Assembly (NCBI RefSeq): GCF_003790525.1
Contig: NZ_CP033635.1
Source: Escherichia coli
GTDB lineage: Bacteria > Pseudomonadota > Gammaproteobacteria > Enterobacterales > Enterobacteriaceae
Direction: 5' to 3' (one strand)
Length of the DNA stretch: 64,000 nucleotides
The position numbers and the translations under genes were made by a program. The notes under the pieces were generated by a model. It ran no database searches, had not been told where the DNA came from, and was given only the letters and a program-made list of their open reading frames with translations. Numbering within the stretch: position 1 is the first letter of the stretch; the number at the start of each line of letters is the position of its first letter. Below, in pieces: positions 4,473 to 51,196 of the stretch.

Positions 4473-4514
4473 GTCATACCACTCGCCTGATTATTTTTAG
4501 CTATGTTGGATTTT

Positions 4515-4541
4515 GCCACGGTTTATTCCGTGGCTTTTTTT
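4515..4541 (+). terminator. Rho-independent terminator downstream of allE
   Basis: GCCACGG / CCGTGGC stem followed by a T7 run. Confidence 0.5.
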
Positions 4542-4554
4542 GCGGTAAATTCAG

Positions 4555-23846: not shown

Positions 23847-23996
23847 GTAGGCCTGATAAGACGCGCCAGCGTCGCATCAGGCATCCGCGCATAGCCGCCG
23901 GATGCGGCGTGAACGCCTTATCCGGCCTACCAAACCGTGCTAATTCAATACATTGCAGGTGCCATGTAGGTCTGATAAGACGCATCAGGCATCGCA
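23847..23996. repeat. REP/BIME cluster (three REP units)
   Basis: Repeated GCCTGATAAGACGCG...CGCATCAGGC and GCCGGATGCGGCGTGAACGCCTTATCCGGCCTAC motifs. Confidence 0.85.
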
Positions 23997-35011: not shown

Positions 35012-35039
35012 GTATGTCATTGCGGATGCGCTGCTTTAG

Positions 35040-35200
35040 GGTGGCGCATCTGGCATCGACGCATGCCTGCCGGATGCGGCATAAACGCCTTATCCGGCCT
35101 ACGATTCAGGCACAGGGTTGTAGGCCTGATAAGACGCGTAAGCGTCGCATCAGGCAATGGTGCTCGGATGCCGGATGCCGGATGCGGCGATGTTTTGGCA
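35040..35200. repeat. REP/BIME cluster filling the copA-ybaP intergenic region
   Basis: Multiple GCCGGATGCGGC...GCCTTATCCGGCCTAC and TAGGCCTGATAAGACGCG...CGCATCAGGC units. Confidence 0.85.
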
Positions 35201-35314
35201 TTACGCGACCTTTTTGCACGTTTTCCCCGGCGTGCCAAATATTTAATCCGTCCCAACTCCATTTGCGCCATCCCTCACCGCGCGCTAGCATGATATTTCA
35301 CAAAGGGAGGTCGT

Positions 35315-36109
35315 ATGGATCTGTTGTACCGGGTAAAAACGCTTTGGGCCGCGCTGCGCGGTAATCATTACACCTGGCCTGCTATCGATATCTCTCTTCC
35401 CGGCAATCGCCATTTTCATCTGATCGGCAGTATTCATATGGGTAGCCACGATATGGCTCCCCTGCCCACCCGTTTGCTCAAAAAGCTCAAAAACGCCGAT
35501 GCGCTGATCGTCGAGGCGGATGTTTCCACCAGCGATACGCCTTTTGCTAATTTGCCTGCCTGCGAGGCGCTGGAAGAGCGCATTAGCGAGGAGCAACTCC
35601 AAAACCTGCAGCACATTAGCCAGGAGATGGGCATTTCTACCTCACTCTTTTCTACCCAACCGCTGTGGCAAATCGCGATGGTTCTTCAGGCGACGCAGGC
35701 ACAAAAACTGGGGCTCCGGGCAGAATATGGTATCGATTACCAGCTATTGCAGGCGGCGAAGCAACAACATAAACCCGTGATTGAACTGGAAGGGGCAGAA
35801 AACCAGATTGCCATGTTGCTCCAGCTCCCTGACAAAGGACTGGCACTGCTGGACGATACGCTGACCCACTGGCACACCAATGCACGGTTGCTGCAACAAA
35901 TGATGAGCTGGTGGCTGAATGCACCGCCGCAAAATAATGAAATAACGCTGCCCAATACGTTCAGTCAGTCGCTGTACGATGTGCTGATGCATCAGCGAAA
36001 TCTCGCCTGGCGGGATAAATTACGCGCCATGCCGCCGGGGCGATATGTGGTCGCGGTCGGTGCACTACACCTGTATGGAGAAGGGAATTTGCCGCAAATG
36101 TTGCGCTAA
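35315..36109 (+). CDS. ybaP: TraB/GumN-family protein
   Basis: ORF track, 264 aa; recognised YbaP. Confidence 0.85.
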   Translation: MDLLYRVKTLWAALRGNHYTWPAIDISLPGNRHFHLIGSIHMGSHDMAPLPTRLLKKLKNADALIVEADVSTSDTPFANLPACEALEERISEEQLQNLQHISQEMGISTSLFSTQPLWQIAMVLQATQAQKLGLRAEYGIDYQLLQAAKQQHKPVIELEGAENQIAMLLQLPDKGLALLDDTLTHWHTNARLLQQMMSWWLNAPPQNNEITLPNTFSQSLYDVLMHQRNLAWRDKLRAMPPGRYVVAVGALHLYGEGNLPQMLR

Positions 36110-36191
36110 AAAAATGGCCAATATCGCTATTGGCCCGTCAAAGAGGAATTTCATTTTTTTATTATTATGCCGTCACTTTAAGCGACGGTGT
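36108..36191 (-). ncRNA. chiX: ChiX (MicM/SroB/RybC) Hfq-dependent small RNA
   Basis: Minus-strand sequence ACACCGTCGCTTAAAGTGACGGCATAATAATAAAAAAATGAAATTCCTCTTTGACGGGCCAATAGCGATATTGGCCATTTTTTT matches ChiX as I recall it, ending in a GGCCAATAGCGATATTGGCC hairpin plus U-run; lies in the ybaP-ybaK spacer as in K-12. Confidence 0.8.
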
Positions 36192-36297
36192 AACTCGATT
36201 GTCGCTCAATCTCACCATCCTGCCAATACTCTTAGGCAAGATGACTCTTTTTTTTGGACCGCCATCAGGCGTATGCTTGCTTCGTTTTTTTGTTTAA

Positions 36298-36792
<495 letters not shown>

Positions 36793-41864: not shown

Positions 41865-41949
41865 GTAGGCCTGATAAGACGCGCCAGCGTCGCATCAGGC
41901 ATTGAGAGCAAAATGCCAGATGCGGCGTGAACGCCTTATCTGGCCTACG
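41865..41949. repeat. REP/BIME pair
   Basis: TAGGCCTGATAAGACGCGCCAGCGTCGCATCAGGC and GCCAGATGCGGCGTGAACGCCTTATCTGGCCTAC. Confidence 0.85.
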
Positions 41950-49264: not shown

Positions 49265-51196
49265 TCAAATGGGGCGGATACTTTCTTCATCCAGCTCCGC
49301 ATCGAAGAATCGACGCAGGGTCTGAATATTATTATCCGCAATAATGGACTCGCGCGCCTGCGCAAGTTTTTCTTCGTATATCGCCTGACGCCATTCCAGC
49401 GGCGTACGCACCGCGGGATTATCATCTTCAACGATAGTCAGTTCAACCGTTGAACCTTTTAACGTGCTCAACGCTTCAGCCAGTTTTTGCTGTGCGCCGC
49501 GGTTGTTCAAATGCCGCTGAGAGGAGCGCAAATGCAGACATACTGCGTTGTCGCTCTCCTCTTTCCAGGCATTTAACGCCACCTGTTCGACCAGTTTTGG
49601 TAGCGAAAGTTGACTCACCTGAGCCGCCCACGGGTCGCGCTCAATGGCTTCTGCCGCCAGCTTCGCCGCCAGTTCCGGCGTTTTTTCATGTTCCAGCGCT
49701 TTTTTCAGCGCCTTCGGCGTGGCGACCACTTCTTTTTGCTGCATCACTGGAGTGGTCGCCTTCCAGCGATACGCTTCTTTTTTGGCTGGCGCTTTTTCCA
49801 GCGCCGATGGCACCGGGCGCGCCTGAACGCGATCGGTGACCGAAGCCAGTCTTTCCAGCGCAGCGTTATTCACCGGCCGCGCGCGGGTAGCGGCTGCCGG
49901 TTCACTCTTTTTTGCTTTGGTTGCTCCCTGCACGCGCTGCAACTGCTGGCGCGCCGCCAGCACCTGGCTGGTGGTTTCCGGGAGCGGTACAGTCGGTGCC
50001 TGCTGCGGCGCTGATTGCGGTTGCGGCGGCACCTGGGTTGGCGTCATTACTGCCGTTGGCGCAACGGGCGCAAAGGACTGGCGTGGCACTTCTGGCTCAG
50101 GCAGAGGCATACGCGGATGGAACGCCAGCGCGCGCAGCAGCGTCATCTCAACGCCCATGCGGCGGTCCGGCGCATACGGTAATTCTTTGCGACCAATCAA
50201 CAGCGTTTGATAGTAAAGCTGAATATCCGTCGGCGGTATGGTACGCGCCAGTTCACGCATCCGCAGCTCGATGGCGGCCATGTCGTTGCCAAGTGCAGCA
50301 GGCGAAAGTTGTACCATCGCAATACGATGCAACAAACCGAGCATTTCCACCAGCAACGCTTCCCACTCGATACCACGGGCAGCAGCTTCATTAATTAGCG
50401 CCATTACGCGCTCGCCGTTGGCCTCGACCATCGCTTCAACCAGCGACAACGCCTGATCGTCGTCAAGCGTACCCAGCATCGCACTGACGGCCTGGGTTGA
50501 AACCTGGCCGTCACCGCTGGCAATCGCCTGGTCGGTCAGACTTAAGGCATCTCGCAAGCTGCCTTCAGCGGCGCGCGCCAGTAATTGCAACGCCCGCGGC
50601 TCGTGAGCGATATGTTCTTCGTTGAGGATGTGCTCAAGCTGATGGCGAATTTGCTCGACATCCAGCGCCTTGAGATGGAATTGCAGACAGCGCGACAAAA
50701 TCGTCACCGGCAATTTCTGCGGATCGGTCGTCGCCAGCAGAAACTTAACGTGCTCCGGCGGCTCTTCAAGGGTTTTTAACAGTGCGTTAAAGCTGTGGCG
50801 CGACAGCATATGCACTTCGTCGATGAGATAAACTTTGAAACGACCACGCGCCGGAGCGTACTGGACGTTATCCAGCAGGTCGCGAGTGTCTTCAACTTTA
50901 GTACGCGAGGCGGCGTCGATTTCAATCAGATCGACAAAGCGCCCCTGCTCGATTTCACGACAGTTATCGCACACGCCGCACGGCGTCGCGGTAATGCCGG
51001 TTTCGCAGTTTAGCCCCTTCGCCAGCAGTCGGGCGATAGAGGTTTTTCCGACGCCACGGGTACCGGAAAAAAGATAAGCATGATGAATACGCCCTAACGA
51101 CAAGCCGTTCGCCAGTGCGGTCAGCACATGTTCCTGGCCGACGACGTCAGCAAAGGTTTGTGGGCGCCATTTTCGGGCTAAGACCTGATAACTCAT
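49265..51196 (-). CDS. dnaX: DNA polymerase III tau subunit (gamma made by -1 frameshift)
   Basis: ORF track, 643 aa; recognised DnaX. Confidence 0.95.
   Translation of the reverse strand: MSYQVLARKWRPQTFADVVGQEHVLTALANGLSLGRIHHAYLFSGTRGVGKTSIARLLAKGLNCETGITATPCGVCDNCREIEQGRFVDLIEIDAASRTKVEDTRDLLDNVQYAPARGRFKVYLIDEVHMLSRHSFNALLKTLEEPPEHVKFLLATTDPQKLPVTILSRCLQFHLKALDVEQIRHQLEHILNEEHIAHEPRALQLLARAAEGSLRDALSLTDQAIASGDGQVSTQAVSAMLGTLDDDQALSLVEAMVEANGERVMALINEAAARGIEWEALLVEMLGLLHRIAMVQLSPAALGNDMAAIELRMRELARTIPPTDIQLYYQTLLIGRKELPYAPDRRMGVEMTLLRALAFHPRMPLPEPEVPRQSFAPVAPTAVMTPTQVPPQPQSAPQQAPTVPLPETTSQVLAARQQLQRVQGATKAKKSEPAAATRARPVNNAALERLASVTDRVQARPVPSALEKAPAKKEAYRWKATTPVMQQKEVVATPKALKKALEHEKTPELAAKLAAEAIERDPWAAQVSQLSLPKLVEQVALNAWKEESDNAVCLHLRSSQRHLNNRGAQQKLAEALSTLKGSTVELTIVEDDNPAVRTPLEWRQAIYEEKLAQARESIIADNNIQTLRRFFDAELDEESIRPI
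49870..49914 (-). other. dnaX programmed -1 ribosomal frameshift signal: slippery heptamer A_AAA_AAG plus downstream stem-loop
   Basis: Minus-strand GCA AAA AAG AGU GAA CCGGCAGCCGCUACCCGCGCGCGGCCGG; heptamer at plus-strand 49908-49914, GC-rich palindrome at about 49872-49900. Confidence 0.8.

Follow-up and report, generated by a model that had tools for sequence, protein, structure and literature searches.

The 84-nt feature on the minus strand at positions 36108-36191 of the window (the whole stretch of Escherichia coli DNA that was analysed, 64,000 nucleotides of contig NZ_CP033635.1 from assembly GCF_003790525.1) is the gene for ChiX, an Hfq-dependent, trans-acting small RNA (sRNA) with a promoter and a terminator of its own, and we put the probability of this reading at roughly 97%. 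ChiX is a textbook sRNA, the model of both decoy/sponge control and Class II binding to Hfq, and in this window the gene, its place and its neighbours are all already known and are as in the reference.

Identification and genomic context of chiX

When the whole window was scanned against Rfam, RF00368 (sroB, the family name used there for ChiX/MicM/RybC) matched from 36191 to 36108 on the minus strand, over model positions 1-83 of 83. The match scored 82.1 bits (E = 1.8e-10), almost double the gathering score of 44. Alignment to chiX of E. coli K-12 (b4585; NC_000913.3 507204-507287) showed 84 of 84 nucleotides to be identical, i.e., 100% identity. The original prediction, which was made from the sequence alone, had proposed ChiX at exactly these coordinates and on this strand and had named an Rfam scan and an alignment to K-12 chiX as the means of checking it, and both of these bore it out.

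According to the open reading frames (ORFs) and the annotations, chiX lies in the intergenic region between ybaK and ybaP (Table 1), divergent from the former and convergent with the latter, and MicM/ChiX is entered between the same two genes in PMC3384567. The order of the locus, copA / ybaP / chiX / ybaK / ushA, is that of K-12 with the orientation reversed, and chiX serves here mainly as a positional anchor, by which the window is confirmed to be a piece of E. coli chromosome. Using a 401-bp query across the chiX locus, we retrieved the region from 5,422 of 5,426 complete E. coli genomes, in all cases at an identity of at least 95%. The RefSeq/PGAP records whose DNA is 100% identical to the window (H1-H12) list ybaP and ybaK only and leave chiX unannotated, and among the records compared (K-12 vs PGAP-annotated E. 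coli) it is the curated K-12 record alone that annotates the gene. The missing chiX in the PGAP annotation is an annotation habit and no sign that the gene is absent. Two practical points follow the gene around: its omission by PGAP, and its contact with ybaP, on account of which an interactome pipeline wrongly labelled it a ybaP 3′ UTR (see below).

Table 1 Features discussed in the text, with their positions in the window and the evidence for each.
Feature	Position	Strand	Evidence
STnc480 (RF02068)	4479-4545	-	81.9 bits vs gathering score 72; 5-nt deletion vs consensus
naRNA4/CssrE (RF02564)	23850-23927	-	83.6 bits
naRNA4/CssrE (RF02564)	41868-41945	-	81.1 bits
dnaX programmed -1 frameshift element (RF00382)	49868-49932	-	96.8 bits; consensus but for one position
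ybaP (TraB/GumN family protein, 264 aa)	35315..36109	+	ORF list, RefSeq records of identical DNA, K-12 annotation
chiX (sroB/micM/rybC) sRNA gene, 84 nt	36108..36191	-	RF00368, identity to K-12 b4585, fold
Rho-independent terminator	36108..36135	-	Terminator scan, fold, compensatory changes, Term-seq
Seed / target-pairing region, unpaired (ChiX nt 45-58)	36134..36147	-	Target complementarity, Rfam consensus
A/U-rich single-stranded linker (ChiX nt 24-44)	36148..36168	-	Sequence
5′ stem-loop (ChiX nt 4-22)	36170..36188	-	Minimum free energy and centroid folds
Sigma-70 promoter-like site, TTGGCA-17 nt-GACAAT	36198..36226	-	Promoter scan and position
ybaK (Cys-tRNA(Pro) deacylase, 159 aa), upstream flank of the conserved synteny	36313..36792	+	ORF list, annotations, synteny

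Anatomy of the RNA and its targets

The ChiX RNA folds with a minimum free energy (MFE) of -24.1 kcal/mol (z = -3.88 against dinucleotide shuffles), and from its 5′ end it consists of a stem-loop (CCGUCGCU/AGUGACGG), a linker, a seed (UCCUCUUUGACGGG) and a terminator (Table 1). Within the linker there are four consecutive A-R-N triplets at ChiX nt 26-37, and the A residues at nt 24, 27, 30 and 33 are invariant or nearly so in the 109 distinct orthologues among the matches listed (see below); such conserved A's with a period of three would fit the Class II mode in which ChiX has been reported to bind Hfq. The seed segment is given in upper case, and thus as highly conserved, in the Rfam consensus. 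The terminator is built of an 8-bp, GC-anchored stem (GGCCAAUA/UAUUGGCC), a 4-nt loop, an A and then a U7 tail (36108-36114), and the terminator scan located the stem at 36135..36116 on the minus strand, reading GGCCAAUAGCGAUAUUGGCC-A-UUUUUUU.

At the other end of the gene, the -10 hexamer of the sigma-70 promoter-like site ends 7 nt upstream of the annotated 5′ end of chiX at 36191. The promoter scan of 35800-36500 (~700 bp) reported 1 promoter-like site, compared with ~1.1 expected by chance, and because this count is about that of the chance expectation, it is the position of the site that assigns it to chiX. Through its spacing from the K-12-annotated 5′ end, the site is credible as a putative chiX promoter.

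The chiP and chbB-chbC targets lie outside the window, and K-12 copies were used for the pairing check, which was based on exact 12-nt complements in place of RNAduplex energies. ChiX nt 45-56 form the perfect 12-nt Watson-Crick complement of chiP positions -19..-8, including the AAGAGGA Shine-Dalgarno sequence, and nt 47-58 form a perfect 12-nt complement of the chbB-chbC spacer (CCCGUCAAAGAG); arithmetic from the RNA lengths gives ~5e-4 perfect 12-nt matches per target by chance. Full-length RNAduplex pairing gave -38 kcal/mol, against -22 to -30 kcal/mol for the shuffled controls, and was set aside as inflated, with implausible extended duplexes.

It has been reported that ChiX strongly represses the translation and stability of chiP, that compensatory mutations have proven its pairing with chiP, a pairing by which Rho-dependent termination in chiPQ is enhanced, and that both the chbBC spacer and ChiZ are sponges, which pair with ChiX and destabilise it (PMC7815308). 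As a constitutive Class II sRNA, ChiX binds both the proximal and the distal face of Hfq and is a strong competitor for Hfq (bioRxiv 10.1101/2021.05.11.443692). In the strain studied here, chiX would be transcribed from its own sigma-70-type promoter, starting at 36191 and ending at the intrinsic terminator at 36108, and nt 45-58 of the RNA would pair with the ribosome-binding site of the mRNA of chiP (chitoporin), leading to a translation block and to Rho-dependent termination and decay. With chitosugars present, the chb operon would be induced and its chbB-chbC spacer would pair with the ChiX seed and cause ChiX to decay; ChiZ, a fragment of the chiP 5′ UTR, would likewise trigger this decay, and the repression of chiP would be relieved. 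The expression of ChiX, its Hfq dependence and its regulatory outcome are taken from the literature, while its identity and family, its anatomy and conserved structure, its seed complementarity, its synteny and the overlap come from the present analysis.

Overlap with ybaP and direction of termination

The TAA stop codon of ybaP occupies 36107-36109 and the A-run of the plus strand 36108-36114, and at the junction this strand reads TTGCGC-TAA-AAAAA-TGGCCAATATCGCTATTGGCC-CGTCAAAGAGGAATTTCATTTTTTTATTATTATGCCGTCACTTTAAGCGACGGTGT, with CGTCAAAGAGG following TGGCCAATATCGCTATTGGCC. The two genes are convergent and share 2 bases (36108-36109), where the stop codon is complementary to the final two U's of the terminator tail. 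The curated coordinates of K-12, with chiX at 507204-507287 (+) and ybaP at 507286-508080 (-), give the same 2-nt overlap. In K-12, Term-seq places the 3′ end of ChiX at 507287(+), classed as ‘primary, antisense’ to ybaP (PMC7815308 supplementary file 1), with scores of 445,279 to 955,394 at this position in all three growth conditions (PMC7815308). In the window, 507287(+) corresponds to 36108, which is the second base of the TAA that ends ybaP. The convergent, overlapping 3′ ends of the sRNA and ybaP that had been predicted are thus seen in the sequence, in the K-12 annotation and in published Term-seq. Most simply, the 2-nt overlap is of long standing and results from the lack of any spacing between the two genes, ybaP using as its stop the TAA that the last T-T-A of the terminator tail provides.

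The hairpins at 36116-36188 might be thought to be the 3′ UTR or terminator of ybaP, or else a bidirectional terminator shared by both genes, with no separate RNA gene at all. The stems are palindromic and therefore also form in ybaP-sense RNA, and the label given to the region by one RIL-seq annotation pipeline was indeed ‘ybaP.EST3UTR’, although the RIL-seq authors themselves re-labelled it as ChiX. In ybaP-sense RNA, however, the mirror hairpins are followed by CGUCAAAGAGG and UGUAACUCGAUUG, and neither of them by a U-tract. Up to the end of chiX, the terminator scan and the fold revealed no intrinsic terminator on the plus strand, the only site being on the minus strand, and with CGTCAAAGAGG following the hairpin on the plus strand, a bidirectional intrinsic terminator was rejected. 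The promoter-like site, the Rfam match and the mapped 3′ end are likewise all on the minus strand. We therefore regard the absence of a separate RNA gene as extremely improbable and retain chiX as a gene in its own right.

Because the hairpins lack U-tracts on the ybaP-sense strand, ybaP transcripts presumably continue antisense across chiX. The published K-12 Term-seq tables contain no 3′ end for ybaP (PMC7815308). For transcription in the chiX direction, DirectRNA-seq with and without bicyclomycin (BCM) has identified a Rho-dependent region on the strand antisense to ybaP that peaks 181 nt beyond the 3′ end of ChiX, at 507468(+), with downstream/upstream reads of 22/1492 without BCM and 115/2100 with BCM (Rho score 3.7, p = 4e-10; PMC7815308). 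This position corresponds to ~35927 (-) in the window, inside the ybaP antisense. The read counts point to a read-through of chiX into ybaP antisense of a few percent, which is curtailed by Rho.

Between chiX and the start of ybaK (window 36246-36291, plus strand), a T8 run at 36249-36256 and a T7 run at 36285-36291 were observed, the latter preceded by a weak 5-bp stem (36266-36279) that was flagged as terminator-like. Upstream of ybaK, no other candidate sites were seen at which ybaP transcripts might stop on the plus strand. The MFE fold has the T8 run paired with the A7 run of the ybaP stop.

Conservation across Enterobacterales

When species-representative genomes were scanned for exact matches to the core AAATTCCTCTTTGACNGGCC, at least 120 loci were obtained, and the matches listed include the genera Escherichia, Citrobacter, Enterobacter, Klebsiella, Serratia, Yersinia, Rahnella, Pantoea, Erwinia, Hafnia and Proteus. 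Nearly all of the matches listed lie between a divergent ybaK homologue and a convergent ybaP homologue; in Proteus faecis (L065) and in L091 (near-identical ChiX sequence) the RNA is present with no adjacent ybaP. A match in a Lindowbacteria MAG (L060), without hairpin, U-tail, ybaP or ybaK, was discarded as a chance pattern match. That nt 41-60 are invariant in the alignment follows from the exact pattern used in the search and was not counted, the Rfam consensus being independent of it.

Among the matches listed, the terminator folds at -11.3 kcal/mol or better in 109 of 109 distinct orthologues, and at two of its pairs there are double-sided compensatory changes from A-U to G-C (in 17 and 4 sequences, respectively). 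When the same 109 orthologues were analysed with MAFFT and RNAalifold, the terminator helix was the only one recovered and the 5′ hairpin was not, because the latter is too divergent between clades to be aligned by sequence; each sequence was therefore folded separately. Using this approach, a 5′ hairpin at -5 kcal/mol or better was found at the equivalent place in 97 of the 109, with many stems of unrelated sequence (e.g., CCGUCGC/GUGACGG, CCGAAGG/CCUUCGG, CCGGGGC/GCCCCGG and GCCAGCAA/UUGCUGGU).

The contact with ybaP could be scored at 116 of the matches listed. At 87 of these loci ybaP ends at a TAA made of the complement of the U-tail's end (the last T-T of the tail and the next A), and 4 Pantoea loci have a 1-nt overlap via TGA. 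A G after the U-run extends the ORF by 5 codons (QKNGQ*), 17 nt into the hairpin, at 4 loci, and at ~19 loci a spacer of 3-230 bp separates chiX from ybaP. Past the conserved LYG motif, the YbaP tail of the 87 loci with a shared TAA is 9, 10, 11, 12 or 13 residues long, and these five lengths imply several changes in the length of the tail, which nevertheless continued to end at the TAA derived from the terminator. In the simplest reading, the shared TAA is an inherited, spacer-less junction, where the first stop in frame comes from the terminator. This use of one sequence as both stop codon and terminator tail is deeply conserved, and it offers a small example of an sRNA terminator that fixes the end of a neighbouring ORF.

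That the chiX terminator lies directly against the stop codon of ybaP could also be read as a functional, selected physical coupling of the two genes. Such a coupling might take one of two forms: read-through from ybaP would produce a perfect cis-encoded antisense RNA that titrates ChiX, or else constitutive chiX transcription and read-through would damp ybaP by polymerase collision or antisense RNA. The persistence of the shared TAA at most of the scored loci despite the five tail lengths would fit this idea, as would the lack of a plus-strand intrinsic terminator before the chiX end and the existence of Rho-limited read-through into ybaP antisense (507468(+), PMC7815308). However, the read-through of chiX amounts to only a few percent, the Term-seq tables hold no 3′ end for ybaP (PMC7815308), and shared ancestry accounts for most of the conservation of the overlap. 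Moreover, the exact overlap is dispensable, since both genes are intact in the ~19 species with a spacer as well as in the 4 species whose ORF enters the hairpin. In the literature we found no functional link between ybaP and ChiX, the two being connected there only by an entry in a table and a note on annotation. Nothing here requires a functional coupling of chiX and ybaP, which we consider unlikely, and the inherited, spacer-less junction remains our preferred reading.

Four of the loci with a spacer, from Rahnella and Buttiauxella (L040, L046, L064 and L122), have 113-138 bp between the two genes with the sequence CGTCATACTTCAAG...TGCGTTGGCT, which we take to resemble the ERIC/IRU intergenic repeat. 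If that identity is true, the insertion of a repeat broke the chiX-ybaP overlap in those Rahnella and Buttiauxella species, a suggestion that is offered as a lead only.

Other features of the window

In one respect the original prediction was wrong, as it had held ChiX to be the only ncRNA that could be supported in the window: the Rfam scan gave four more matches at the gathering level, namely STnc480 (a second sRNA family), two naRNA4 sites and the dnaX frameshift element (Table 1). By their sequence, both naRNA4 sites are paired palindromes of the REP/BIME type. The dnaX element puts dnaX on the minus strand, in agreement with an orientation that is reversed relative to K-12.

On the far side of ybaP, ybaQ (b0483, HigA-like regulator/antitoxin) is absent between copA and ybaP (window 35012-35330), where ~561 bp of the K-12 copA-ybaP region are replaced by 71 bp, with the junction at ~35179-35249. 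The copA-ybaP spacer of the window is filled with REP-like repeats (GCCGGATGCGGC...), and the tandem duplication of ~101-111 bp that is found between copA and ybaP in K-12 is represented in the window by one copy. Of 5,426 complete E. coli genomes, only 44 contain the ybaQ-less junction of the window over its full length, e.g., that of SMS-3-5 (NC_010498).

Comparison with known systems

The closest known system is ChiX of K-12, which agrees with the gene in the window in sequence, length, strand relative to its neighbours and ybaK-ybaP synteny, as well as in its two-hairpin architecture, seed, terminator and 2-nt overlap with ybaP. No difference is detectable in the gene itself, and the sole local difference, the missing ybaQ, lies outside it.

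Among other sRNAs, MgrR, CyaR and McaS have been grouped with ChiX as binders of both the proximal and the distal face of Hfq (bioRxiv 10.1101/2021.05.11.443692). These Class II sRNAs resemble ChiX in having an A-rich (ARN-type) segment and a U-tailed intrinsic terminator, whereas their sequences, loci and targets are unrelated to those of ChiX. Set against them, ChiX is made constitutively, and its control lies mainly with decoy/sponge RNAs rather than with promoter regulation.

The arrangement with ybaP recalls two further systems. As with the bidirectional terminators found between convergent genes, the 3′ ends of chiX and ybaP meet at one hairpin; unlike in those, the chiX hairpin has an A-tract on one side, which provides a U-tail for the minus-strand transcript alone. 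sRNAs that are derived from 3′ UTRs (of the CpxQ and SroC type) share with ChiX the physical contact between an sRNA and the end of a coding gene, but ChiX lies on the strand opposite to ybaP, has a promoter-like site of its own and is not processed from the ybaP mRNA.
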